This document shows positions 6,682 to 61,514 of a stretch of DNA of 64,000 nucleotides, one piece after another. Made by a program: the position numbers and the translations under genes. Every line of letters starts with the position of its first letter. The first letter of the stretch is position 1. Origin of the DNA: an uncultured Clostridium sp. (lineage in GTDB: Bacteria > Bacillota > Clostridia > TANB77 > CAG-508); the NCBI GenBank assembly GCA_902462295.1, contig CABQAZ010000006.1, positions 2,089 through 66,088 on the forward strand. Direction: 5' to 3'. The notes under the pieces are model-generated. The model did not search any database. It was not told the origin of the DNA and saw only the letters and a program-made list of their open reading frames with translations.

Positions 6682-8517
6682 ATGCCAGGACCAATGGGAC
6701 CAAGACCAGGCCATACAACAGAAAAGGCCAAAGATTTTAAAGGAACAACAAAAAAATTAATAAAAAATTATTTGTCAAAATATAAAATTGGATTAATAAT
6801 AGTATTTATATTTGCTGTTGGAAGTACTATATTTTCTATAATAGGACCAAAAATATTAGGAAATGCAACAACAGAAATATTTAATGGATTAGTAAATAAA
6901 ATATCAGGAAATGGTGGAATAGACTTTGGAAAAGTTGGAACAATTCTACTAACTTTATTAGGATTATATGTAATAAGTGCATTGTTTTCTTTCATCCAAA
7001 GTTTTGCGATGACACAAATTGCACAAAATTTAACATATAAGCTAAGAAAAGATTTAGCACATAAAATAAATTCACTTCCAATGAACTATTTTGATAAAAA
7101 GACAAATGGAGAAGTATTGTCAATAATAACAAATGATATAGATACATTAGGAATGAATTTAAATCAAAGTGTTACACAAATAATAACATCAGTATGTACA
7201 TTAATTGGAATATTAATAATGATGCTTTCAATTAGTTGGCAAATGACATTAATTTCATTAATAGTTATGCCAATAGGAGCATTTCTTGTAAAAATAATAG
7301 TAGGAAAATCACAAAAATACTTTAAAAAGCAACAAGATTACTTAGGACATGTAAATGGTCAAGTAGAAGAAGTATTTTCTGGATTAACAATAGTAAAAGC
7401 ATTTAATGGAGAAGAAGATGCACAAAAAGAATTTGAAAAAGCAAATTCAGAATTATATAGTTCAGCTTGGAAATCACAATTTTTGTCAGGATTAATGCAT
7501 CCAATAATGAATTTTATATCAAATATTGGATATGTAGGTGTAGCAATAGCAGGAGGGTATCTAGCTATAAATGGAAATATTACAGTAGGAGATATACAAA
7601 GTTTTATACAATATAATAAACAGTTTACACAACCAATAAACCAAATTGCACAAGTATCAAGTATGTTACAAGCAATGGTTGCTGCAACTGAAAGAATATT
7701 CGAATTCTTAGAAGAAGATGAAGAAGTTGAAACATATGTAGAAGGAACAACAACAGAAGGTTTAAAAGGAAATGTAAAATTCGAACATGTAAAATTTGGT
7801 TATAATCCAGAAAATACTGTAATAAAAGATTTTAATGCAGATGTACATGAAGGACAAAAAATTGCAATTGTAGGACCAACAGGAGCAGGAAAATCAACAA
7901 TGGTAAAACTTCTTATGAGATTTTATGATGTAACAGATGGTGAAATATTACTTGATGGACATAACATCAAAGATTTCAAAAGAGGCGAATTACGTCAAAT
8001 GTTTGGAATGGTATTGCAAGATACATGGCTATTTGACGGAACTGTAAAAGATAATATTAAATATGGAAGAGAAGATGCAACAGATGATGAAGTTATTCAA
8101 TCTGCAAAAGCTGCTAGAGTACATCATTTTATAAAAACATTACCTAATGGATATAATTCGGTATTAGGAGATGAAACAAGTGGAGTTTCAGCCGGTCAAA
8201 AGCAATTGCTTACAATAGCAAGAGTAATTTTAGCAGACCCTAAGATATTAATTTTAGATGAAGCAACATCAAGTATTGATACAAGAACTGAAATAGAAAT
8301 TCAAAAAGCTATGGATAATTTAATGAAAGGTAGAACATCTTTTATTATTGCACATAGATTATCAACAATTAAAAATGCTGATTTAATATTAGTTATGGAC
8401 CATGGTGATATTGTTGAACAAGGAACACATGAGCAACTTCTTGAAAAAGGAGAAGATGGATTTTATTATAAATTATATAATAGTCAATTCCAAGATTGTA
8501 TTGATGAAGTTGAATAA
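6682..8517 (+). CDS. ABC exporter, fused permease/ATPase subunit B
   Basis: GPTGAGKST, VSAGQKQLL and LILDEATS motifs. Starts immediately after subunit A, so a heterodimer partner. Confidence 0.9.
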   Translation: MPGPMGPRPGHTTEKAKDFKGTTKKLIKNYLSKYKIGLIIVFIFAVGSTIFSIIGPKILGNATTEIFNGLVNKISGNGGIDFGKVGTILLTLLGLYVISALFSFIQSFAMTQIAQNLTYKLRKDLAHKINSLPMNYFDKKTNGEVLSIITNDIDTLGMNLNQSVTQIITSVCTLIGILIMMLSISWQMTLISLIVMPIGAFLVKIIVGKSQKYFKKQQDYLGHVNGQVEEVFSGLTIVKAFNGEEDAQKEFEKANSELYSSAWKSQFLSGLMHPIMNFISNIGYVGVAIAGGYLAINGNITVGDIQSFIQYNKQFTQPINQIAQVSSMLQAMVAATERIFEFLEEDEEVETYVEGTTTEGLKGNVKFEHVKFGYNPENTVIKDFNADVHEGQKIAIVGPTGAGKSTMVKLLMRFYDVTDGEILLDGHNIKDFKRGELRQMFGMVLQDTWLFDGTVKDNIKYGREDATDDEVIQSAKAARVHHFIKTLPNGYNSVLGDETSGVSAGQKQLLTIARVILADPKILILDEATSSIDTRTEIEIQKAMDNLMKGRTSFIIAHRLSTIKNADLILVMDHGDIVEQGTHEQLLEKGEDGFYYKLYNSQFQDCIDEVE

Positions 8518-50686: not shown

Positions 50687-50717
50687 TTGACTCTTCCCTT
50701 AAGGTTAGGTGTATATT
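50687..50717 (+). promoter_or_regulatory. MerR-type promoter (19-bp spacer with dyad)
   Basis: TTGACT, 19 bp containing CCTTAAGG, then TATATT. Confidence 0.55.
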
Positions 50718-50735
50718 AAATTTAGGAGGAAAAGA

Positions 50736-52625
50736 ATGTTAAAAATAGGAGAATTTGCAAAATTATTTAATGTAACAATAAAAACAATAAGATTTTATGA
50801 AGAGAAAAAGTTATTGAAGCCATGTTATATTGATAAATATTCTGGATACAGATATTATAACGAAGAAAACATTAAGCAAATGAATGAAATATTATATTTA
50901 AAAAAATTAGGTTTTTCTTTAGACGAAATAAAAAAATATGATGAAAAACTAGTTAAAACTAAAATTGAAGAATATCAAGAAAAAATTATTCAATATACTT
51001 CTAATATTAATATTCTTAAAGACATAGATAGTACAAACAAAAAGGGAGAGGAGGTTAAAAAGACTAAGAAAAAGTTTAAATTTAATGGTTATTATAAAAA
51101 AGATTATAGAATAATAGGGTTTTGGAAAACAATAGCTTTATTAAAGAAGAATCAGAAGTTTAAATATAGAAACATAGAAATAAAACATGATTTTGAACTC
51201 GAAAGAATTACTATAAATCCTGTAGAGAATGAAGTGATTGCATATATTAATAAAAAAAGTATAATAACTAAATATACTAAAAATTATATTCTAAATATCA
51301 TAGGAAATGATATTGCAAATTATTATGAATATAAAAAAATAAATGGAAAAAAATATCTATTTCTAGAATGGAAAAATGGATATTATTATGTATTAGAAAA
51401 AATAGGAGGAATTAATTTAATGGAAGAAATGTTTGAAAACAAAGAAAGAATGTACAATATTTTAACTAAAGATGGTAAAGGTCTAACTTTAGGAAAAGAC
51501 ATTATATTGCCAGAAAATAAAAGAGGAAATGTAAATGCATTAATTGTAGGAGGGAGTGGTTCTGGAAAAACAGCCTCATATACAATAACAAATATATTAA
51601 AAATGTTAGGTTCGTATATTATAGTAGATCCTCTAGGAGAAATATATGATAAAACTAATAAATATTTAAAAAATAATGGATATAAAATAAAAGTATTGAA
51701 TTATGAAAATAGGGATATAAAAAATAAAATTGATGAAGAAGATAAATATCAATATAATCCCCTAAACTATATAAAATCTGATACAGATATAGAAAATTTA
51801 GCAAACATCTTAATAGAAGATGATGGTGGTGATGAATTTTGGAATGAAGCATCAAAAAGTTTAATGAAAGCTGTAATTTATTATGTTATAGAAAAAGAAG
51901 AGAAAAAAGATTTATTAACATGTTTTAAATTATTAGGATTACCACAACAAACATTATTTGCTAAATTTGACATATTTGAAGAAAATTCAAAGGCATATAA
52001 ATATTATACAATTTTAAAAACATTTCCAGATAAAACATATCAAAGTATAGTTTCAACAGCAATATTAAAATTATCTTTTGTAATAAATGGAATAAGAGAA
52101 GAAGCTAAAGAAAATGATAATTTTAATTTTGAAGAATTGAAAGATGGAAAAGTAGCAGTATTTTTAATGTTAAATGAAAATCATAATGAAGACATTAAAT
52201 TTAACAATATTTTTATAAGTCAATTTTTAACAACATATAAAGTTGGAGATGTAGGGCAAGAATATATATATATTATGTTAGATGAAGTTGGAAGATTGGG
52301 TAAGATTTATGATTTGGCAAGAAATATGGAATTAGCAAGATGTAGAAAATTATCGATTAGTTTTATTACAAATAATATGGAAAACATAAAAGATATCTAT
52401 GGAAAAGGATATTATAATATAATGAATTCAATAGATACACAAATGCTATTAGGAACAAATATAAAATCAGATATTATGTATTTTAGTGAATTATTAAGTA
52501 TAGATCCAGATTTTATTAAAGATGAATTGAAAATTGATGAACTTTTAATATATGAAAGAGGTCTAAAGCCAATACTTGCTAAAAAATGTTATTTTTTTGA
52601 TAGTGAAGAATGGAAGAATATATAA
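50736..52625 (+). CDS. MerR-HTH fused to a T4 coupling protein (TraG/VirD4/TraD)-like P-loop ATPase, no TM segments
   Basis: N-terminus LKIGEFAKLFNVTIKTIRFYEEKKLL...YRYY. C-terminal half VGGSGSGKTAS...IVDPLGE...YIMLDEVGRLG...LLGTN. Confidence 0.7.
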   Translation: MLKIGEFAKLFNVTIKTIRFYEEKKLLKPCYIDKYSGYRYYNEENIKQMNEILYLKKLGFSLDEIKKYDEKLVKTKIEEYQEKIIQYTSNINILKDIDSTNKKGEEVKKTKKKFKFNGYYKKDYRIIGFWKTIALLKKNQKFKYRNIEIKHDFELERITINPVENEVIAYINKKSIITKYTKNYILNIIGNDIANYYEYKKINGKKYLFLEWKNGYYYVLEKIGGINLMEEMFENKERMYNILTKDGKGLTLGKDIILPENKRGNVNALIVGGSGSGKTASYTITNILKMLGSYIIVDPLGEIYDKTNKYLKNNGYKIKVLNYENRDIKNKIDEEDKYQYNPLNYIKSDTDIENLANILIEDDGGDEFWNEASKSLMKAVIYYVIEKEEKKDLLTCFKLLGLPQQTLFAKFDIFEENSKAYKYYTILKTFPDKTYQSIVSTAILKLSFVINGIREEAKENDNFNFEELKDGKVAVFLMLNENHNEDIKFNNIFISQFLTTYKVGDVGQEYIYIMLDEVGRLGKIYDLARNMELARCRKLSISFITNNMENIKDIYGKGYYNIMNSIDTQMLLGTNIKSDIMYFSELLSIDPDFIKDELKIDELLIYERGLKPILAKKCYFFDSEEWKNI

Positions 52626-52662: not shown

Positions 52663-52726
52663 GCAGATTAAGAAAAATGACAAAGATATTTTTTTTGCAT
52701 AAAATATACAAATGGAGGTATTAATT

Positions 52727-53473
52727 ATGAAGAGTATATTGGAAGTAAAAGATATTTGCAAAACATATCAAGCACAAAATGGTGAAATAGAGGCATTAAA
52801 AAATATAAGTTTTGATGTAAAAGAAGGAGAATATATAAGTATAATAGGACCAAGTGGATGTGGGAAATCAACACTATTGTCTATAATTTCAGGTCTTGAA
52901 AGCAAAAGTTCAGGAGAAATTTACATAGATGGAAAGATTGGATATATGTTACAAAAAGATAATCTTCTGGAATGGAGGACAATATATAAAAATGTATTGC
53001 TTGGTTTGGAAATCCAAAAAGAAAACACATTAGAAAATAGAAAATATGTGGAGAGTTTATTGAAAAAATATGGATTATATGAATTTAAAGATAAGTATCC
53101 AACTCAGCTTTCTGGTGGTATGAGACAAAGAGTTGCTTTAATTAGAACTCTTGCTATTCGTCCTAAGATTTTATTGTTAGATGAGGCTTTTTCTGCTTTG
53201 GATTATCAAACAAGATTAATGGTTACTGAGGATATTTTTAAAATTTTAAAGGCTGAAAATATTACTGCATTAATGGTGACTCATGATATATCAGAAGCAA
53301 TAAGTATGTCAGACAGAGTAATAGTATTAACAGAAAGACCAGCAACAGTAAAATGTATACACAATATAAATTTTGAGATGAAAAATAGAACACCACTAAA
53401 TTGTAGAGAAAATCCTAAATTTAGTAAATATTTTAATTTAATGTGGAAAGAACTTGGAGAAAAAAATATATAA
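52727..53473 (+). CDS. ABC importer ATPase (NitT/TauT family)
   Basis: GPSGCGKST, LSGGMRQRVALIRTL and LLLDEAFSALD. Confidence 0.9.
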   Translation: MKSILEVKDICKTYQAQNGEIEALKNISFDVKEGEYISIIGPSGCGKSTLLSIISGLESKSSGEIYIDGKIGYMLQKDNLLEWRTIYKNVLLGLEIQKENTLENRKYVESLLKKYGLYEFKDKYPTQLSGGMRQRVALIRTLAIRPKILLLDEAFSALDYQTRLMVTEDIFKILKAENITALMVTHDISEAISMSDRVIVLTERPATVKCIHNINFEMKNRTPLNCRENPKFSKYFNLMWKELGEKNI

Positions 53474-53515: not shown

Positions 53516-54919
53516 TTAAATTCTGTCAAAAAGAATAGAAACATTTTTTAAAGCAGTAAATGGTTCAATATGGATATATTCCCAATTACAGCCTGTTTTA
53601 CCGAAAAAGTTAAATACTTTCTGAGATGAATCAGGGATAAATGGCTCATACAAATTTGCGATGTTGATAATTAGCTCAAGACATGTAAGTGTAACATTAT
53701 TGAAATCATCAATATTTTCTTTGACTGAAACCCAAGGTTTGTGAGTATCATAATATTTGTTTGCATATTGTACCAATTCACTGATTTTTGATATAGCAGG
53801 TTTTATTCTGCCCTGTTCAATTAATTCACTAACCACATCATAAGTTTTTGAAACATATAATTTAACATTTTCGTCAATAGTTCCATTTGGAATTACACCA
53901 TTAAACTTTTTGACTAAAAAGGCTAAGTTGCGGTTAACAAAATTTCCATATTCACCGACTAATTTTTTATTATGGAGTTGAATCAACATTTCATAACTAA
54001 AATTAGAATCTTTTTGTTCAGGGGCTTGAGAGAGCATATAATATCTGATAGTATCTGAACTGTATTTTTCAATAAGTTCTTTGGCTGTTACGCCATTTCC
54101 TTGGCTTTTGGAGATTTTTTCATCATTTACATTAAGATATTCACTAGAAATCATGTAATCTGGTAAATGATAATCTTCTTTCAAAGAAAGTAATAATGCC
54201 GGATAGATAATTGTATGGAATGGAATATTGTCTTTACCATGAATAAAATAAGATTTTACGTTATTGTTTTTGTAAAAATTTCTCCAATTTAAATCATGTT
54301 GTTTACAATAATATTTCCCTGCTGAGATATATCCGAGTACTGCATCAATCCAGACATAAATTTTTTTGTCATCATATCCTTTAAATGGAACATCAATTCC
54401 CCATTCAAGTTGACGTGTAATGGCACGGTCACGTAATCCGGCTTTTAAATATTTTTTCGATTCATTAATTGCATTAAAACGCCAGGAATCTTCATGTGCG
54501 GAAATAAAAGTTTTAATTTCATTTTGAAAAGAACTAAGTTTCCAATAAAGATGTCCGTCTTTTCTGTAAAGGTAACCATTGTCAAGAAGTTTTCTGATGC
54601 AAGTTCTTACAAAACTTTTGTGATATGTATTACATGTTAAAGTGTAATTATCATAAGAAAAGTTTAGTTTGTCAAAACAGTAACAGAATTCTTCATGATA
54701 CCGATGAACGATATCTAAAGCTTTGCAGTGTTCTTTACGAGCTCTAATTGTGATAGGTGTACCATGTGAATCTGTACCAGAAACATATAATACATTGTCT
54801 CCATTTTTTCGATAGTATCTTGCAATAACATCTCCTGGAAGAAGTGCAGCAATGTGCCCTACATGTAGATGACCATTAGCATATGGCCAAGCACCTCCTA
54901 TAAAAATATTCTGCTTCAT
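53516..54919 (-). CDS. Methionyl-tRNA synthetase-like class I enzyme lacking the CP zinc-knuckle insertion (467 aa)
   Basis: WPYANGHLHVGH (HIGH), KISKS (KMSKS), YVWIDAVLGY and an anticodon-domain helix bundle. GYLYRKD runs directly into GHLYWKLSSF where MetRS normally has about 60 aa. Confidence 0.75.
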   Translation of the reverse strand: MKQNIFIGGAWPYANGHLHVGHIAALLPGDVIARYYRKNGDNVLYVSGTDSHGTPITIRARKEHCKALDIVHRYHEEFCYCFDKLNFSYDNYTLTCNTYHKSFVRTCIRKLLDNGYLYRKDGHLYWKLSSFQNEIKTFISAHEDSWRFNAINESKKYLKAGLRDRAITRQLEWGIDVPFKGYDDKKIYVWIDAVLGYISAGKYYCKQHDLNWRNFYKNNNVKSYFIHGKDNIPFHTIIYPALLLSLKEDYHLPDYMISSEYLNVNDEKISKSQGNGVTAKELIEKYSSDTIRYYMLSQAPEQKDSNFSYEMLIQLHNKKLVGEYGNFVNRNLAFLVKKFNGVIPNGTIDENVKLYVSKTYDVVSELIEQGRIKPAISKISELVQYANKYYDTHKPWVSVKENIDDFNNVTLTCLELIINIANLYEPFIPDSSQKVFNFFGKTGCNWEYIHIEPFTALKNVSILFDRI

Positions 54920-55139
54920 TGTTTTTGCCTCCTTTTAACATGTTGTGTAACTATCAAAAGTATATAGAGATAGTTACTATAAATTAATAGTAACAATATA
55001 AAAACATTTGACAGTATTATACGAAAAATGGAAATATAAGTCAACAAAAATAGAAAAATTTGGTAAATTTTTAAAACAATTTATAATAAATATTGAAATT
55101 TTTAGTATATTGTAATATAGTAAAAAACGAGGTGTCACG

Positions 55140-55640
55140 ATGGAAAAAAGAGATTTATATAATAAATATAAGGAAAATACGCAATATACAATATTAAAAG
55201 AACAAGAAACGCCAGAAAATTATTATACATTGGTTGTAACAGTTCTTATACAAAATTCTAAAGATGAAATATTAATCCAGAAAAGAAGCAAAGAAAAAGG
55301 TGGAGAATATGGTTTAACTTCAGGTCATCCAAAATCAGGAGAGACTAGCTTAAGTGGAATGATAACTGAAATTAAAGAAGAATTAGGTGTTGAAGCATAT
55401 CCACATGAATTAAAATTAATGTATTCAGAAAGAGATGATATAAATAAATGCTTTTATGATTTATATTACTTAAAAAAAGACTATAAAAAAGAAAAAATGC
55501 TGTTACAGAAAGAAGAAGTAGATAAAGTTTATTGGTTGCCAGAAGAGAAAATAAATGAATTATGCAAAAATGGAGAGTTTAAAGAAAGCCATATAGAGGC
55601 ATTTAAAATTTTAATGAAAAAAATTAATGGAAAATATTGA
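55140..55640 (+). CDS. NUDIX hydrolase
   Basis: Nudix box GHPKSGETSLSGMITEIKEELGV. Confidence 0.8.
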   Translation: MEKRDLYNKYKENTQYTILKEQETPENYYTLVVTVLIQNSKDEILIQKRSKEKGGEYGLTSGHPKSGETSLSGMITEIKEELGVEAYPHELKLMYSERDDINKCFYDLYYLKKDYKKEKMLLQKEEVDKVYWLPEEKINELCKNGEFKESHIEAFKILMKKINGKY

Positions 55641-55699
55641 CAAATATAAATTGTAGGTATAAAATGGTAAAAACTGGAATAAAAGGAGGGCGAACAAAT

Positions 55700-56686
55700 A
55701 TGCCTATGGTTGCTCAATGGGATATAAATGATGATTGTAATCTTAATTGTAAACATTGCAGAGTTTTAGAAAAAAATACAAAAGAAAAAGAGTTAACATT
55801 AGAACAAGCAAAAAGTTTATTATCCCAGTTATATTACTGTGGTACAACCAAATTAAATCTTTCAGGAGGAGAACCATTTTTAAGAAAAGACTTATTTGAA
55901 ATATTAGATTATGCCACAAAATTTGAAGATATAGTAATAACAACAAATTGTACATTGATAAATGAAAAAACAGCAAAAAAATTAGCTCAATATCCAAATG
56001 TAAGATTATCAATAAGTATAGATGGAATGCAAGAAATTCATGATAAATTCAGAGGAAGAAAAGGAACATTTCAAAAAGTAGTTGATACACTACCTATATT
56101 AAAAGAAAATGGAGTCAAATTTTCAATAAGGTATACACTTACAAAAGAAACGATAAAAGACGCAAAAGAAGTATTGAGATTAGCAAGTAAAAATGGAGCA
56201 GATGAATTTAATACAAGAAGAGTTATATTAACAGGTAATGCAAGTGAAGATTTAATGATATCTAATGACGAATATAAAAAAATAATCAAAGATTTGATAC
56301 AAGAATGTAAAAAATTAAACATAAAATTCAGAACAGGAGATCCATTACTAATTCCAATATTTCCAGAAGTATTTGGAATTGATTTAAAAGAAGCAAGTCA
56401 ATATTATGCAGGATGTGAAGCTGGAGATGAGATTATATATATTGATTTTAAAGGAAATGTAGGCGCATGTTCATATATTCCTATGTTTGCAGATAATATC
56501 AAAGATAAAGCATTAGATGAAATTTTAAAAAATAACAAATTATTTGTCACACTAAAAGAGTATAAAGAAAGCTTAAAAGGAAAATGTAAAGAGTGTACAT
56601 ATAAAATGATATGTGGAGGATGTAGAGCTACAGCATTATCGCTAAAAAAATCATTGCTAGAAGAGGACCCTTTATGTTTGTTATAG
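55700..56686 (+). CDS. Radical SAM enzyme with C-terminal SPASM-type Cys cluster
   Basis: CNLNCKHC (CxxxCxxC) at residues 13-20, GGEP, and C-terminal GCEAG...GACSY...CKECTYKMICGGCRA. ATG 55700 follows AAGGAGG. Confidence 0.85.
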   Translation: MPMVAQWDINDDCNLNCKHCRVLEKNTKEKELTLEQAKSLLSQLYYCGTTKLNLSGGEPFLRKDLFEILDYATKFEDIVITTNCTLINEKTAKKLAQYPNVRLSISIDGMQEIHDKFRGRKGTFQKVVDTLPILKENGVKFSIRYTLTKETIKDAKEVLRLASKNGADEFNTRRVILTGNASEDLMISNDEYKKIIKDLIQECKKLNIKFRTGDPLLIPIFPEVFGIDLKEASQYYAGCEAGDEIIYIDFKGNVGACSYIPMFADNIKDKALDEILKNNKLFVTLKEYKESLKGKCKECTYKMICGGCRATALSLKKSLLEEDPLCLL

Positions 56687-56754
56687 TTATTAACATTGCA
56701 ATTTTTGCAATACATATAAATTTAATAGGTTAATTACCTAGAAAGGAGTTCAAA

Positions 56755-56862
56755 ATGAAAAAAGAAGTAATGAAAACAGAGGTAAAAAACAAACCAGTAA
56801 ATGAAGTGAAAAATGAAACAAATAATAAAAAGAAAATACTTACATGTAGAATGTGCGGATAA
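56755..56862 (+). CDS. 35-aa Lys/Asn-rich peptide ending in ILTCRMCG (candidate RiPP precursor; not in the ORF track)
   Basis: AAAGGAG RBS 7 nt before the ATG. Encodes MKKEVMKTEVKNKPVNEVKNETNNKKKILTCRMCG*. A strong terminator follows directly. Confidence 0.6.
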   Translation: MKKEVMKTEVKNKPVNEVKNETNNKKKILTCRMCG

Positions 56863-56872
56863 GATAATTTTA

Positions 56873-56906
56873 AAAGGTGACAATTTTGATTATGTCACCT
56901 TTTTAT
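56873..56906 (+). terminator. Rho-independent terminator after the small peptide ORF
   Basis: AAAGGTGACA, loop, TGTCACCTTT, then TTATT. Confidence 0.85.
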
Positions 56907-56919
56907 TAATATAGAGAGG

Positions 56920-57255
56920 ATGATAGAAGTGAGTATATTTCCAAAAAAGGTAGTAAAAGGTAAAGACATGTTTACAACATTTCATATGAAAATTTGTAAT
57001 AATTCAAATGAAGATGTTAGTGGGCAGATTAGATATAAAGTAGTTATGCCAAATGGGAAAATAGACGAATTTAATTTAAATAGAACAGAGGAAATAAAAG
57101 CAGAGTCTGAGTTAAATAAATATGATAAATATTATATAAAAGATAATTTTCCAATAGGAAGATATTTTGTAGATGGTACATTTTGGTGGGACGGTATGAA
57201 TATATTATCAGAAACAAATAAAAATGATTTTTTTGATGTGGTAGAAAGGGAGTAA
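56920..57255 (+). CDS. Hypothetical protein (111 aa)
   Basis: ORF. No family recognised. Confidence 0.5.
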   Translation: MIEVSIFPKKVVKGKDMFTTFHMKICNNSNEDVSGQIRYKVVMPNGKIDEFNLNRTEEIKAESELNKYDKYYIKDNFPIGRYFVDGTFWWDGMNILSETNKNDFFDVVERE

Positions 57256-57256
57256 T

Positions 57257-57979
57257 ATGAGAAAAATAGATGGATTAAAATTTTTACAAAAAAATTTTCC
57301 TAATTTAACAGTTGATTGTTTATTTGTAGATAAAGTTGAAAATTTGGATGAAAAACAATTGGAAAAAAGCAAATTATGGAGAGTGCGAGGTGGACGTACA
57401 ATAGGCTCGGAATTAAATTTGCCACAAGGTACTTTTTCAGATAAAAAAGAATTGAAAAAATTTATGAAAGAACAGAAACAAAAAGATAAAAATATGGAGT
57501 TTGTAATTCATAGAGTATCACCAGAGTATTTTTCCGCACCTTTTGTAGGAACTTTAGCTGTATATAATAAAGGTGATAGACCAGGAATAAAGATTGAATT
57601 ACAAGAAGTTACTAAAGAATTAGTTGATTCAATCGATAAAGGAAAAAGACCAAGAGATTGGGAAGCGAGCCTAATACTTGATTATGAATTTTTAAGTAAA
57701 GCTCCAAAAGTTTTAAAAAAATCTCCTAATTTGAATATGGATTTCTTGAAATATCCTATAGTTGTTATCCATGAGATTGGTGAGCAAATTTTTGAATTAT
57801 ATGAAAATAATGGACAAGAAGCGGAGACTTATACAAGATTTAATATTTATGATTTAGGACAAGTTGTTTTAGATGACCATAGAAGTAAAGAATCCTTTAT
57901 GGAAAAATATAAGTTTACGCCATCTCCTATAACTAATTCTAAATCGTGTAAAAACACTAAAAAAGAGATTGAACGATGA
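57257..57979 (+). CDS. Hypothetical protein (240 aa)
   Basis: ORF abutting the previous one (its ATG begins 1 nt after the stop). No family recognised. Confidence 0.55.
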   Translation: MRKIDGLKFLQKNFPNLTVDCLFVDKVENLDEKQLEKSKLWRVRGGRTIGSELNLPQGTFSDKKELKKFMKEQKQKDKNMEFVIHRVSPEYFSAPFVGTLAVYNKGDRPGIKIELQEVTKELVDSIDKGKRPRDWEASLILDYEFLSKAPKVLKKSPNLNMDFLKYPIVVIHEIGEQIFELYENNGQEAETYTRFNIYDLGQVVLDDHRSKESFMEKYKFTPSPITNSKSCKNTKKEIER

Positions 57980-58029
57980 TTTTTACAGAGAGGGTACAAT
58001 GTATCCTCTTGATTTTTTCTAAGACATTT

Positions 58030-58107: not shown

Positions 58108-58905
58108 ATGAATAAGAAAGAAACAATTTCTAATGAAAGAAAAAAATATTTAAAAAAGATAAAAATAAGAAAAATTGAAATATTAATGACACAAGTTTTT
58201 ATAATTATAGTATTTATATTATTGTGGGAAATGCTTGCAAGAAAAGGAATAATAGATAGTTTTATAGCTAGTCAACCATCTAGAATAGTAAAGACATTTA
58301 TGAATTTATCTTCAAATAATTTATTGGAACATTTAAAAATAACATGTGAAGAAACATTAATAGGATTTGGATTAGGAAGCATTGCTGGAGTTATAATTGC
58401 AATAATATTATGGTGGTCACCGTTTATTTCTAAAGTATCTGAACCTTTTTTAGTTGTTTTAAATAGTTTACCTAAAATTGCACTTGGTCCAGTAATTATA
58501 ATTTGGGTTGGTGCTGGAATGCCTGCAATAATTGTGATGGCATTGGCAATCTCATTAATAGTTACAATACTTGATATATTAAATGGATTTTTACATACAG
58601 ATAAAGAAAAAATAAAAATGGTAAGAACATTTAATGCAAGTAAAATTCAAGTATTAACCAAAATCGTAATTCCATCAAATATATCAACTTTTTTTAATAC
58701 ATTAAAAGTTAATATAGGACTTTCATTAGTAGGAGTAATATCTGGAGAGTTTTTAGTATCTAAAGGAGGATTAGGTTATCTAATAGTTTATGGAGGGCAA
58801 GTATTTCAATTAGATTTAGTTATGACTAGTGTTATTATTCTTGCTATTGTTGCAGCTCTTATGTATGAAACTATAGTTATATTAGAAAAGAAAATAGTAA
58901 AGTAA
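58108..58905 (+). CDS. ABC importer permease (NitT/TauT family)
   Basis: Six-TM BPD-transport pattern with an EAA-like loop (NASKIQVLTKIVIPS). Confidence 0.85.
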   Translation: MNKKETISNERKKYLKKIKIRKIEILMTQVFIIIVFILLWEMLARKGIIDSFIASQPSRIVKTFMNLSSNNLLEHLKITCEETLIGFGLGSIAGVIIAIILWWSPFISKVSEPFLVVLNSLPKIALGPVIIIWVGAGMPAIIVMALAISLIVTILDILNGFLHTDKEKIKMVRTFNASKIQVLTKIVIPSNISTFFNTLKVNIGLSLVGVISGEFLVSKGGLGYLIVYGGQVFQLDLVMTSVIILAIVAALMYETIVILEKKIVK

Positions 58906-58997: not shown

Positions 58998-60020
58998 ATG
59001 AAAAAGATTGTAATTAGTATTTTAGTAGTTGTACTTATAGCTGTTATAATATTGGGAATATATTGTTTGACAAATAAAAATAAAGAAGAAAATGTTGGAT
59101 TGAAAACTATACAATTAAATGAAGTAACTCGTTCTGTGTTTTATGCACCACAATATGTAGCAATTTCAAATGGTTTCTTTGAGCAAGAAGGATTAAAATT
59201 GGACATTACAACAGGGCAAGGGGCAGACAAAGTTATGACTGCAATATTATCAGGTCAAAGTGATATAGGACTATGTGGACCAGAAGCAGCAATATATGTG
59301 TATAATGAAGGAAAAGAAGATTATGTTGAAGTATTTGCACAATTAACCAAAAAGGATGGTTCTTTTTTAGTAAGTAAAACACAAAATGATAATTTTTCAT
59401 GGCAGGATTTAAAAGGAAAAACTGTGATACCAGGAAGAAAAGGTGGGGTACCATATATGACATTGGAATATGTTTTAAAACAAAATGGGTTAAATCCACA
59501 AACAGACTTAATTTTAGATGATAGTATAAAATTTGACTTAATGGCAGGTGCTTTTTCAGGAGGAAATGCAGAATATGTAACATTATTTGAGCCTACAGCT
59601 TCAATGACACAAGATGCAGGAAAAGGTTATATTGTAGCTTCTGTTGGCGAATCTGCAGGAGAAGTACCGTATACTGCTTATTGTGCAAAGAAAAGTTATA
59701 TTAAAAATAATTCTGATATTATTGAAAAATTTACTAAAGCAACATATATGGGTGAACAATGGGTTAAAGAACATACTGCTAAAGAAATTGCAGAGAAAAT
59801 ACAAGAATTTTTTCCAGATACAACAATAGAGTCATTGGAAAATTCTGTTCAGAAATATAAAGACATAGATGCATGGAATGATAATCCGATTTTAAAAGAG
59901 TCAGCATTTAATAAATTACAAGAAATTATGTCAGAAGCGGGAGAACTTACTACAAAAGCACCATATGATAAAATTGTAAATAATTCATTTGCAGAAAAAG
60001 TTTCTAAAAGTGAGTCCTAA
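58998..60020 (+). CDS. ABC importer substrate-binding protein (NMT1/THI5-like)
   Basis: Signal anchor plus the SsuA/NMT1-type fold pattern (YAPQYVAISNGFFEQEGL). Confidence 0.75.
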   Translation: MKKIVISILVVVLIAVIILGIYCLTNKNKEENVGLKTIQLNEVTRSVFYAPQYVAISNGFFEQEGLKLDITTGQGADKVMTAILSGQSDIGLCGPEAAIYVYNEGKEDYVEVFAQLTKKDGSFLVSKTQNDNFSWQDLKGKTVIPGRKGGVPYMTLEYVLKQNGLNPQTDLILDDSIKFDLMAGAFSGGNAEYVTLFEPTASMTQDAGKGYIVASVGESAGEVPYTAYCAKKSYIKNNSDIIEKFTKATYMGEQWVKEHTAKEIAEKIQEFFPDTTIESLENSVQKYKDIDAWNDNPILKESAFNKLQEIMSEAGELTTKAPYDKIVNNSFAEKVSKSES

Positions 60021-60203: not shown

Positions 60204-61514
60204 ATGAAAGAGATAGAACTAAGAAATGTAAAAGGATGTGCAGATTATTCACCAAGAGAACAATATATTAGAAATTATATATCAGACACACTAAAAAGAG
60301 TATTTGAAAAATATGGATTCAAACCATTACAAACACCAATATTATGTTATTATGATTTATTAGCTTTAAAATACGATGAAGAAAACGATATATTAAAAGA
60401 GGTATATAAAGTAACAGACCAAGGAAATAGAAACTTAGCATTAAGATATGACTTAACAGTACCATTTGCAAAATACATAGCTATAAATCAAAATACAAAA
60501 TTACCATTTAAAAGATATGAAATAGGAGAAGTATTTAGAAATGGACCTGTAAAACTAGGAAGAGATAGAGAGTTTATTCAATGTGATGTAGATAGTGTAG
60601 GAATAGAGGGACAATTAGTAGAAGCTGAATTTGTTGCTTTATATGTAGAAGCATATAAAGAATTAGGAATTGATATTATAATAAAATATAATAACAGAAA
60701 ATTCTTGTCAGGAATAATTATTGAAGCAGGTATTCCTGAAGAGCTAATAACAGAAACAATAACTATAATAGATAAGTTTGAAAAACTATCAAAACAAGAA
60801 CTAGAAAAAGAGTTTCAGAAAATTGGATTAAACAGTAAGCAAATGGAAAAACTATTTATATATTTAAATATGGATGCAAATCAACTTATAAATATTGAGG
60901 ATAAAAATGATGTATTGTCAGATGGAATAAAAGAACTTAATACATTAAAAAAATATATAGAAAAACTTGACTTGTTAAATTATGTTCAATTTTCACCATC
61001 ACTTGCAAGAGGTCAAGAATACTACACAGGAACTGTTTTTGAAGTATATGTCAAAGATGGAAGTATTACCTCAAGCATTGGAGGAGGAGGACGTTATGAT
61101 AAAATGATAACAGACTTCATAAAAAATGGTACAACATATCCAGCAGTAGGAGTTAGTTTTGGATTAAATGTCATTTATGAAATTTTAAGAAATAGAGAGG
61201 AATTTGCAGAAAAAGCATTAACAGATATTTATATTATTCCTATGGGGACAGAAATAGAATGTCTAAAAATAGCACAAGTATTAAGAAATGGTGGATACAA
61301 AGTTGAAGTTGAGATGAAAAATAGAAAAATGAAAAAAGCTTTAGAATATGCTAATACAGAACATATTCCATATGTGTTTATACTTGGCGAAGATGAGCTT
61401 GCAAATAATAGTATAGCATTAAAAAATATGAATGAAAAGACTCAAGTACAAATTCCTATTAATAATATTGTAGAAGAATTTAATAAAATACGAATGAAAA
61501 ACATTAATCAGTAA
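60204..61514 (+). CDS. hisS: Histidine--tRNA ligase
   Basis: Class II motifs (ALRYDLTVPFAKY, FRNGPVKLGRDREFIQCDVD, GGGGRYD) and an anticodon-binding domain. Confidence 0.8.
   Translation: MKEIELRNVKGCADYSPREQYIRNYISDTLKRVFEKYGFKPLQTPILCYYDLLALKYDEENDILKEVYKVTDQGNRNLALRYDLTVPFAKYIAINQNTKLPFKRYEIGEVFRNGPVKLGRDREFIQCDVDSVGIEGQLVEAEFVALYVEAYKELGIDIIIKYNNRKFLSGIIIEAGIPEELITETITIIDKFEKLSKQELEKEFQKIGLNSKQMEKLFIYLNMDANQLINIEDKNDVLSDGIKELNTLKKYIEKLDLLNYVQFSPSLARGQEYYTGTVFEVYVKDGSITSSIGGGGRYDKMITDFIKNGTTYPAVGVSFGLNVIYEILRNREEFAEKALTDIYIIPMGTEIECLKIAQVLRNGGYKVEVEMKNRKMKKALEYANTEHIPYVFILGEDELANNSIALKNMNEKTQVQIPINNIVEEFNKIRMKNINQ

Follow-up and report, generated by a model that had tools for sequence, protein, structure and literature searches.

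A module of five genes was found on the + strand at positions 55140–57979 of a 64,000-nt stretch of DNA from an uncultured Clostridium sp. (contig CABQAZ010000006.1). This stretch is called the window here, and all coordinates without a locus name are positions in it. The five open reading frames (ORFs) of the module encode a NUDIX hydrolase, a radical S-adenosylmethionine (SAM)/SPASM enzyme, a peptide of 35 aa, and two further proteins of 108 aa and 240 aa. The module probably resembles systems for peptides that are made by ribosomes and modified after translation (RiPPs), with the ultrashort ribosomal peptide serving as the substrate of the radical SAM/SPASM enzyme, and it would then represent a new family. 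The five genes are as follows.

55140–55640, + strand: NUDIX hydrolase, 166 aa (Pfam PF00293, E 2.7e-11).
55700–56686, + strand: radical SAM/SPASM enzyme, 328 aa (PF04055, PF13186, PF13353).
56755–56862, + strand: precursor-like peptide, 35 aa (MKKEVMKTEVKNKPVNEVKNETNNKKKILTCRMCG), with a variable N-terminal part rich in Lys, Asn and Glu and an invariant C-terminal core I-L-T-C-R-M-C-G.
56929–57255, + strand: 108-aa protein with an immunoglobulin (Ig)/fibronectin type III-like beta-sandwich according to its predicted structure; GTG start likely.
57257–57979, + strand: 240-aa clade-specific protein with an ATP-grasp-like fold according to its predicted structure.

A preliminary description of this DNA had proposed a RiPP cassette at this site, and the features it named (the NUDIX gene, an enzyme without a RiPP recognition element (RRE), a small ORF with a ribosome binding site (RBS), a terminator, two downstream ORFs and a methionyl-tRNA synthetase (MetRS) gene) were all found where it had placed them. 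The small ORF starts exactly 68 nt 3' of the stop codon of the enzyme gene, and the sequence AAAGGAG is located 7 nt upstream of it. Related loci were collected from GTDB genomes, from contigs encoding single homologues and from a metagenome scan. The GTDB set comprised eight species, all of them uncultured human-gut Clostridia, including one with a closed genome of 1.55 Mb. Loci were counted if the enzyme was 63–100% identical to that of the window and if at least 220 nt of downstream sequence was available (n = 52). In 51 of them, the small ORF was present directly 3' of the enzyme gene. The conservation beside orthologous enzymes to which the preliminary description had looked was thus borne out, and it extended to enzymes of only 44–45% identity in other lineages, as described below. 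The loci encode 20 distinct peptides of 14–35 aa, and all 20 end with [I/L/V/M]-T-C-R-M-C-G-stop. Nucleotide variation within the core was limited to synonymous third positions and the stop codon (ACA/ACT, TGT/TGC, AGA/AGG, GGA/GGT/GGC and TAA/TAG). Since TCRMCG-stop is invariant in all loci but one while third codon positions vary, the small ORF is, judging from its pattern of substitution, a translated gene under protein-level purifying selection and not a product of chance.

The N-terminal part of the peptide is not conserved and ranges from 27 residues down to 6, the shortest versions being MDDKKK (L037 group) and MKEDKQT (locus L015). In the L037 group, the peptide gene is placed between the enzyme stop codon and the start of the next gene, with a perfect AGGAGG RBS and without a terminator. 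Strong selection at the protein level is apparent only for the C-terminal [basic]-[I/V]-[I/L/V/M]-T-C-R-M-C-G and for the position of the stop codon. The pattern of a long leader followed by a short core, as first proposed, was upheld for the core, which is invariant and contains Cys; the N-terminal part is no classical leader. Since this part is variable and unconserved, recognition must rest on the core.

The small ORF had also been thought to be untracked. The exact peptide of the window does occur in the protein collection without a name, and a near-identical 35-aa variant from relatives, with four substitutions in the N-terminal part, is on record under accession CDD36557.1 (‘unknown [Clostridium sp. 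CAG:356]’) and was present on at least 1000 contigs. Unrelated long proteins (P0482 and P0453, of 455 aa and 564 aa) are listed inside the 90% identity clusters of the peptide, which is an artefact of database clustering. Searches with the peptide and with the 108-aa and 240-aa proteins against Pfam and NCBIfam returned zero matches even at E ≤ 1, and a literature search for CRMCG peptides, for TIGR04053 or for a link between NUDIX and SPASM proteins found nothing. The module is not covered by any curated family or by the literature searched.

The biological start of the radical SAM/SPASM enzyme is ATG 55700, with GGAGG 9 nt upstream, and its stop codon ends at 56686. The motif CNLNCKHC (CX3CX2C) occupies residues 13–20, and in an alignment of 15 homologues with 66–88% identity C13, C17 and C20 are invariant, as are seven further Cys in the C-terminal part (C239, C257, C296, C299, C305, C308 and C326). 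The spacing in the SPASM part is CX2CX5CX2C here, while CX2CX5CX3C is usual. Membership in the radical SAM superfamily followed from PF04055 (100.7 bits; threshold 29.5), and a SPASM domain, with the seven Cys for two auxiliary clusters, from PF13186 (27 bits; threshold 21.5). At E ≤ 1e-20, 493 homologues were retrieved. The best 120 of these are all at least 65% identical to the enzyme, measure 327–345 aa and have the same N-terminus. The enzyme itself begins 12 residues before the first cluster Cys and has no N-terminal RRE. As homologue lengths are uniform and the N-terminus is shared, there is no room for an RRE, in agreement with the preliminary description; moreover, no protein of the module gave a PqqD or RRE match in Pfam or NCBIfam. 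When 1.84 billion cluster representatives were searched exhaustively, the enzyme family formed a single cluster at 50% identity. Beyond this cluster, only a handful of relatives with 36–46% identity (P0242–P0246) were found before the scores dropped steeply.

None of the curated NCBIfam family cut-offs was reached by the enzyme. The best models were AhbD (213.6 bits; cut-off 500), TIGR04053 (208; 395) and NirJ2 (195.5; 500), followed among tetrapyrrole models by NirJ (162.5; 515) and AhbC (153.6; 650). Lower scores were obtained with the maturases of sacti- and ranthipeptides, namely StsB (117.7; 625), PapB (100.8; 340), AlbA (87.5; 850) and SkfB (83.9; 300), and with the enzymes of peptide-derived cofactors, MftC (128.5; 265) and PqqE (85; 381). 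By sequence, the closest solved structures are peptide maturases, i.e., SkfB, CteB (5wgg) and PqqE. Judged by the small ORFs beside its relatives, described below, the enzyme lies in a part of sequence space that is made up of peptide-associated maturases.

The order of the best hidden Markov models (HMMs) raises the question of whether the enzyme acts on a small molecule, by tetrapyrrole chemistry like AhbD or NirJ or on a nucleotide that the NUDIX protein would process further, with the peptide as an unrelated hitch-hiker. The presence of NUDIX and ATP-grasp enzymes, which usually act on small molecules, would fit this explanation. However, the enzyme scored well below the family cut-offs, with AhbD and NirJ2 at less than half, and haem, haem d1 or tetrapyrrole genes were absent from the module, from the flanks in the window and from the contexts of loci L009, L012 and L015. 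Furthermore, the peptide tracks the enzyme across 44–100% identity and several lineages. Hitch-hiking is thus considered very improbable, and a firm assignment to a non-RiPP family such as AhbD, against which the preliminary description had cautioned, was not obtained, as the scores for AhbD, TIGR04053 and NirJ2 are far below their cut-offs.

The pairing of peptide and enzyme was also observed in distant relatives. Loci L020 and L021, in which the enzyme is 44% identical, contain two mini-ORFs directly 5' of the enzyme gene (MQRRRKITCRVCG and MKKTSRIRKVSCRCCG). In locus L019 (45% identical), a peptide (...KKTKKVVSCAMCE; ...MKKTKKVVSCAMCE, i.e., ...KKVVSCAMCE) is encoded at the 3' end of the enzyme gene, overlaps the neighbouring genes and ends 31 nt past the enzyme stop codon. 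The peptides of these distant clusters end with ITCRVCG, VSCRCCG and VSCAMCE, so that enzymes with 44–45% identity from other lineages are again paired with [basic]-[I/V]-[I/V/L]-[S/T]-C-x-x-C-[G/E]-stop. This motif thus accompanies the enzyme clade across lineages. Enzymes with 36–39% identity adjoin other small Cys-rich ORFs (MKKNKKSSKVEKKILTPKEFVELSCMCDN, ...DWICGGSCFPNC and MKNETIIVWACCCVCC...), with Cys patterns such as WICGGSCFPNC, WACCCVCC and LSCMCDN. Since the pairing holds in 51 of 52 loci, at 44–100% identity and in multiple lineages, it supports the reading of enzyme and substrate. In L020, a third candidate ORF without an ATG start (...KKKLLCRQCRV) overlaps in another frame and ends at position 6703 of that locus. 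Loci L068 (2133–7968) and L069 encode a protein of 663 aa consisting of two tandem radical SAM/SPASM modules, with the small ORF MKKNKKSSKVEKKILTPKEFVELSCMCDN just 5' of its gene; 3' of it follow an Amidohydro_2 gene, a third radical SAM/SPASM gene, a gene for a tetratricopeptide repeat protein and, in L069, a cysteinyl-tRNA synthetase (CysRS) gene.

C-x-x-C-G is the classical knuckle of rubredoxins and zinc ribbons. The peptide could therefore be a metal-binding mini-protein rather than a substrate and assist the enzyme by ligating a cluster, by transferring electrons or as a regulatory subunit. The position of CxxCG at the extreme C-terminus, the strict conservation of both Cys, the absence of processing and export genes from the module and the lack of an RRE in the enzyme are consistent with this idea. 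However, a single knuckle provides two ligands only, and conservation extends to the Thr/Ser and hydrophobic residues that precede the first Cys, although metal binding could do without them. Moreover, related enzymes adjoin Cys peptides of very different pattern, which fits substrates better than a fixed subunit, and L020 encodes two different copies of the peptide. Such a metal-binding role of the peptide is therefore regarded as improbable.

Apart from the enzyme and the peptide, the distant clusters (L020, 6514–12067; L019, 1334–7881) share the Ig-like protein with the module and possess accessory genes that differ from those of the window clade. The Ig-like protein is the only common accessory: the homologue in L019 is 30% identical (E 3e-19), and another is encoded in L020. 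The remaining accessory proteins are a helical 341/360-aa pair and a 321/327-aa pair, the members of each pair being homologous to each other. In addition, the distant clusters encode an MR_MLE enzyme resembling L-Ala-D/L-Glu epimerase and either an amidohydrolase resembling histone deacetylases (HDAC-like) or the swivel domain of phosphoenolpyruvate (PEP) utilisers. The swivel domain stands alone in L019 and is fused to the enzyme N-terminus in P0245 (L018, 28–1371), where this mobile phospho-histidine domain precedes a radical SAM/SPASM enzyme with 46% identity. The fusion implies that, in that lineage, the radical enzyme is linked to a phosphotransfer step. Profile–profile comparison revealed no relation of the 240-aa protein to the 321/327-aa or the 341/360-aa proteins; therefore, a common ATP-dependent partner across the clusters could not be shown.

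In the window clade, the NUDIX hydrolase was classified by PF00293 (44 bits; threshold 21.1), as the preliminary description had supposed for the gene preceding the cassette. The NUDIX box GHPKSGETSLSGMITEIKEELGV (consensus GX5EX7REUXEEXGU) is intact apart from the replacement of Arg by Thr. No equivalog cut-off and no specific subfamily was reached. The NUDIX gene is found directly 5' of the enzyme gene in every related locus with enough flank, across three genomic contexts. The closest solved structures are generic relatives (MutT, NUDT18 and YfcD), and its substrate therefore cannot be inferred.

For the 108-aa protein, GTG 56929, which is the start in all homologues, is likelier than 56920, from which 111 aa would be encoded. 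Its AlphaFold2 model had a mean pLDDT of 91, and the best Foldseek matches were the Ig-like domain of AlkC and RbmA (TMq 0.67–0.72). On the strength of this model, the protein is taken to be a binding module without enzymatic function. It may help in recognition of the peptide, which would agree with the earlier suggestion that one of the two downstream proteins serves this purpose; being absent from the subgroup with 65–70% identity, it is not indispensable. The suggestion does not hold for the 240-aa protein, which is predicted to be ATP-grasp-like and not a recognition protein. Wherever the flanking sequence is long enough, related loci also contain its gene, and the 173 homologues of the protein are all devoid of Pfam domains. 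Sequence and profile searches against Pfam, NCBIfam and the PDB gave no match except for a chance match to a polyketide synthase. The AlphaFold2 model (pLDDT 80) matched D-Ala-D-Ala ligase, PurK and tubulin tyrosine ligase in Foldseek with a probability of 1.00, E of about 2e-5 and TMq of 0.45–0.51. Based on this predicted fold, the protein is assigned as ATP-grasp-like with moderate confidence.

The module was compared with known systems of radical SAM enzymes and peptides. Like SCIFF/thermocellin (CteB), PapB, AlbA and SkfB, it combines a SPASM enzyme with two auxiliary clusters and an adjacent short Cys-containing precursor in a clostridial host, and as in SCIFF/thermocellin the Thr adjoining Cys is a plausible thioether acceptor. 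Unlike sacti- and ranthipeptide systems, it has no N-terminal RRE, its precursor shrinks to 14 aa with an unconserved N-terminal part of variable length, its core contains two Cys only, and its partners are a NUDIX hydrolase, an ATP-grasp-like protein and an Ig-like protein. The enzyme aligns end-to-end with AhbD, NirJ2 and TIGR04053, the closest HMMs, at about 330 aa and without an N-terminal extension; it differs from them by scores of 196–214 bits against cut-offs of 395–500, by the lack of haem context and by the conserved adjacent peptide gene.

The nearest architectural precedent, unrelated in sequence, is provided by graspetide-type loci of Bacteroidetes, which combine an ATP-grasp protein, a SPASM enzyme, a Cys-containing precursor and a small non-RRE putative PqqD analogue (Makarova et al. 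2022, PMC8939145). Unlike these, the module has no C39 peptidase or ABC exporter, includes a NUDIX hydrolase and encodes a 240-aa protein without detectable family similarity. It is not a graspetide locus, as the conserved core I-[ILVM]-T-C-R-M-C-G is without an acidic residue, i.e., without Asp or Glu for rings. A radical SAM/SPASM maturase acting without an RRE on a short core is also known from darobactin (DarE), and very small precursor genes (5 aa) exist in biarylitides (PMC12951456). However, DarA is long and is crosslinked via Trp, and biarylitides use a P450 instead of a radical SAM enzyme. The module is built and probably operates like a cassette for a radical SAM RiPP, but since no curated cut-off was reached, there is no RRE, the core lacks acidic residues and the set of partners is unique, it belongs to none of the described families.

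Mycofactocin (MftA/MftB/MftC) and pyrroloquinoline quinone (PQQ; PqqA/PqqD/PqqE) offer a further parallel, since they also pair a SPASM enzyme with a short peptide conserved only at its C-terminal end. The module has no exporter and its core is invariant across the clade, as in these systems, which suggests a cofactor-like product. The differences are the absence of an MftB/PqqD chaperone, a core of C-x-x-C-G instead of G-V-Y or E...Y, and other downstream enzymes. Assignment to mycofactocin failed on the MftC cut-off, on MftB and on the GVY end, since the peptide ends with CRMCG.

In a variant of the substrate reading, which is possible although rather unlikely, the peptide would be a scaffold from which, as with mycofactocin and PQQ, a small intracellular cofactor or metabolite is derived. 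The enzyme would modify the C-terminal C-x-x-C-G, and other enzymes would excise and tailor the small molecule: the NUDIX and ATP-grasp-like proteins in the window clade, and the amidohydrolase/HDAC-like and dipeptide-epimerase-like enzymes in the distant clusters. Such a product would explain a core that remains invariant across the clade while the remainder drifts and shrinks, unlike fast-evolving bacteriocins, as well as the lack of exporter, protease and immunity genes, the retention of the module in a genome of 1.55 Mb and the presence, in the distant clusters, of enzymes that act on small molecules (MR_MLE, HDAC-like amidohydrolase and PEP-utiliser swivel domain). However, the redox or dehydrogenase partners that accompany mycofactocin or PQQ are not present, and the accessory enzymes differ wholly between the window clade and the distant clusters. 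If this variant applied, which we propose only tentatively, a minimal scaffold of 13–14 aa, to our knowledge the shortest peptide substrate of a radical SAM enzyme, would present its invariant S/T-C-x-x-C-G end to an RRE-less enzyme for rebuilding, with lineage-specific finishing to follow, yielding a sulfur-containing counterpart of mycofactocin and PQQ in strict anaerobes. Finishing might then, again as a doubtful proposal, be carried out by the NUDIX and ATP-grasp-like proteins in the abundant Clostridia of the human gut and by the amidohydrolase, the dipeptide epimerase and the PEP-utiliser phosphotransfer domain elsewhere.

For the peptide as the substrate of a RiPP-like pathway, the following sequence of steps is proposed. 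First, the enzyme would bind directly to the short core at the C-terminus, with the Ig-like protein as a possible helper; this is favoured by the lack of an RRE in the enzyme and by an N-terminal part of the peptide that can be as short as 6 residues. Second, the radical SAM cluster and the two auxiliary clusters would modify the S/T-C-x-x-C segment of the core. SPASM enzymes such as CteB, PapB, AlbA and SkfB form thioethers from Cys, and Thr is the thioether acceptor in the clostridial SCIFF/thermocellin system. By analogy, the likeliest reaction would be the formation of a thioether between one Cys sulfur and a carbon of a neighbouring residue, because SPASM enzymes do so with Cys-containing clostridial peptides. 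The prime candidate for the acceptor would be the invariant Ser/Thr that directly precedes the first Cys. Third, the ATP-grasp-like protein might activate a carboxylate for ligation or cyclisation at the C-terminus, a guess made because the free C-terminal Gly carboxylate is the sole conserved carboxylate in the window clade. The NUDIX hydrolase would supply a nucleotide-linked step. The terminator following the peptide gene and the conserved element upstream of it may cause the peptide to be transcribed in larger amounts than the downstream genes.

In favour of a RiPP-like module, the motif is kept in distant clusters and relatives with 36–39% identity also lie beside Cys-rich ORFs. In addition, the enzyme has the full CX3CX2C and seven-Cys SPASM set, its solved relatives are peptide maturases, the module is mobile as a unit, and published RiPP loci combining SPASM, ATP-grasp and small auxiliary proteins exist (PMC8939145). 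Several observations weigh against this reading. Locus L055 is without the peptide, the sole exception among the 52 loci. This 1.8-kb contig is also without the 240-aa gene, and its sequence diverges right after the enzyme gene (1186–1855) into an ORF of 151 aa; it may reflect a rearrangement, a loss or a misassembly. The best HMM matches of the enzyme are tetrapyrrole enzymes (AhbD and NirJ2) and not peptide maturases. The Ig-like protein is missing from the subgroup with 65–70% identity, and the assignment of the ATP-grasp protein comes from fold similarity at moderate TM-scores alone, without support at sequence level. The module contains no protease, exporter or immunity gene. We know of no NUDIX hydrolase acting as a RiPP tailoring enzyme, and a literature search for a link between NUDIX proteins and RiPPs found none. 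Finally, we infer both the modification of the peptide and its chemistry, purely so.

The transcription signals and the divergent neighbour of the module are listed below.

53516–54919, – strand: MetRS-like gene (metG model).
55060–55121, + strand: two sigma-70-like promoter matches (TTGGTA-16-TATAAT and TTGAAA-17-TATAGT) 5' of the NUDIX gene; consensus matches only.
55637–55665, + strand: promoter-like site TTGACA-17-TAAAAT just 5' of the radical SAM gene, matching at 11 of 12 positions; consensus match only.
56690–56721, + strand: element TTAAC-ATTGCAA-N3-TTGCAAT-ACATATAAAT, conserved in the spacer that separates the enzyme gene from the peptide gene; putative promoter or operator.
56872–56910, + strand: intrinsic-terminator-like hairpin (56872–56903; 11-bp stem and a loop of 10 nt), followed by a U-run and located immediately 3' of the peptide gene.
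57988–58020, + strand: intrinsic terminator closing the module (10-bp stem with 4 GC pairs, T-run).

The number of sigma-70-like promoter matches in the region was not above shuffle expectation. In the intergenic alignment, TTGCAA-N(3-9)-TTGCAAT-(A/T)ACATATA is kept across groups of 65–100% identity that have an intergenic spacer. This tandem palindromic hexamer element aligns in L001–L054 and is located between the enzyme stop codon and the peptide RBS in most subgroups. In the window, it does not match canonical sigma-70 spacing; the element may be a promoter or an operator. The hairpin behind the peptide gene has a folding energy of -12.9 kcal/mol (z = -3.45), and none of 200 shuffled sequences was equally stable. 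It was missed by a simple terminator scan because its loop measures 10 nt. Apart from the L037 group, every subgroup has a hairpin with a T-run 3' of the peptide, and the stem sequences differ between subgroups. Given its own terminator at 57988–58020 and the promoter-like sites before the NUDIX and enzyme genes, the module therefore forms its own transcription unit.

This arrangement also allows an explanation by attenuation, in which the small ORF would be a leader peptide sensing Cys and Met: when sulfur is scarce, ribosomes stalled at its Cys/Met codons would cover the terminator and thereby turn on the downstream genes, including those of a sulfonate-type ABC importer. The codons for Cys-Arg-Met-Cys lie immediately before the stop codon, the terminator hairpin begins 9 nt further, and in the window subgroup the module is inserted in the operon of an Ssu-like importer of the NitT/TauT type. 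However, conservation is no stronger for Cys and Met than for Thr, Arg, Gly and the precise place of the stop codon. The peptide is retained in the L037 group, which has no terminator, and in L009 and L012, where no ABC genes follow; it overlaps its neighbours in L019 and occurs in two copies 5' of the enzyme in L020. An alternative antiterminator structure was not found (z -0.66). Thus, attenuation has hardly any probability and ranks even behind a hitch-hiking peptide.

At least three genomic contexts of the module were observed, namely inside the NitT/TauT-type ABC importer operon (window), after a Laminin_G_3 gene and after a helix-turn-helix (HTH) regulator gene; therefore, the module moves as a unit. 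In the window, it splits the importer into the ATPase gene upstream (52712–53473) and the permease and binding-protein genes downstream (58108–58905 and 58998–60020), all on the + strand. The importer scored best with models of the Sao and Ssu/taurine families, none of which reached its cut-off. This split was seen in all loci with an enzyme at least 75% identical, and not in the groups with 63–70% identity. The earlier remark that no transporter or protease is obvious thus applies to the module, the flanking ABC genes being those of an importer that is absent in other contexts. In L009 (8888–11452; 69% identity group), a pair of M16 peptidase genes is located about 1 kb 3' of the module; it does not occur in the contexts of L012 or the window. 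PqqF and AlbE/AlbF are M16 peptidases.

The MetRS-like protein comprises 467 aa and reached 384 bits with the metG model (cut-off 336) in two stretches that skip profile positions of about 120–178. As these correspond to the zinc-knuckle region of the connective peptide, the usual C-x-x-C knuckles are deleted. The preliminary description was right about the divergent orientation of the gene. As a part of the module in the window clade it was rejected, since it lies on the opposite strand and occurs only in some loci with at least 87% identity. A histidyl-tRNA synthetase gene is located at 60204–61514, 2.2 kb downstream. The neighbourhood is thus simply rich in housekeeping genes, and the adjacency of MetRS may be due to chance. 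A full-length MetRS gene heads the L019 operon and a CysRS gene follows the L069 cluster, a coincidence that is unexplained. At 50709–52625 on the + strand, an ORF of 638 aa combines a MerR-type HTH N-terminus with similarity to VirD4/TraG-like coupling proteins (CD1115 family; 180 bits, cut-off 250), which hints at a remnant of a conjugative element beside the ABC genes. A defence system was considered and rejected, since PADLOC showed only generic similarity to viperin-core and NUDIX proteins.

The module is common in human-gut metagenomes. If the proposed pathway is real, it would constitute a new family of radical SAM-modified peptides with an unusually small precursor. Recognition of a core rather than a leader, in a system without an RRE, would bear on substrate binding by SPASM enzymes and on genome-mining tools that rely on RREs or leaders. 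The system is small and directly testable with one enzyme and a synthesisable peptide of 14 residues. The invariant hexapeptide, the absence of export and processing genes and the retention of the module in a genome of 1.55 Mb point to a possible physiological role, as a cofactor, redox peptide or signal, instead of that of an antibiotic.

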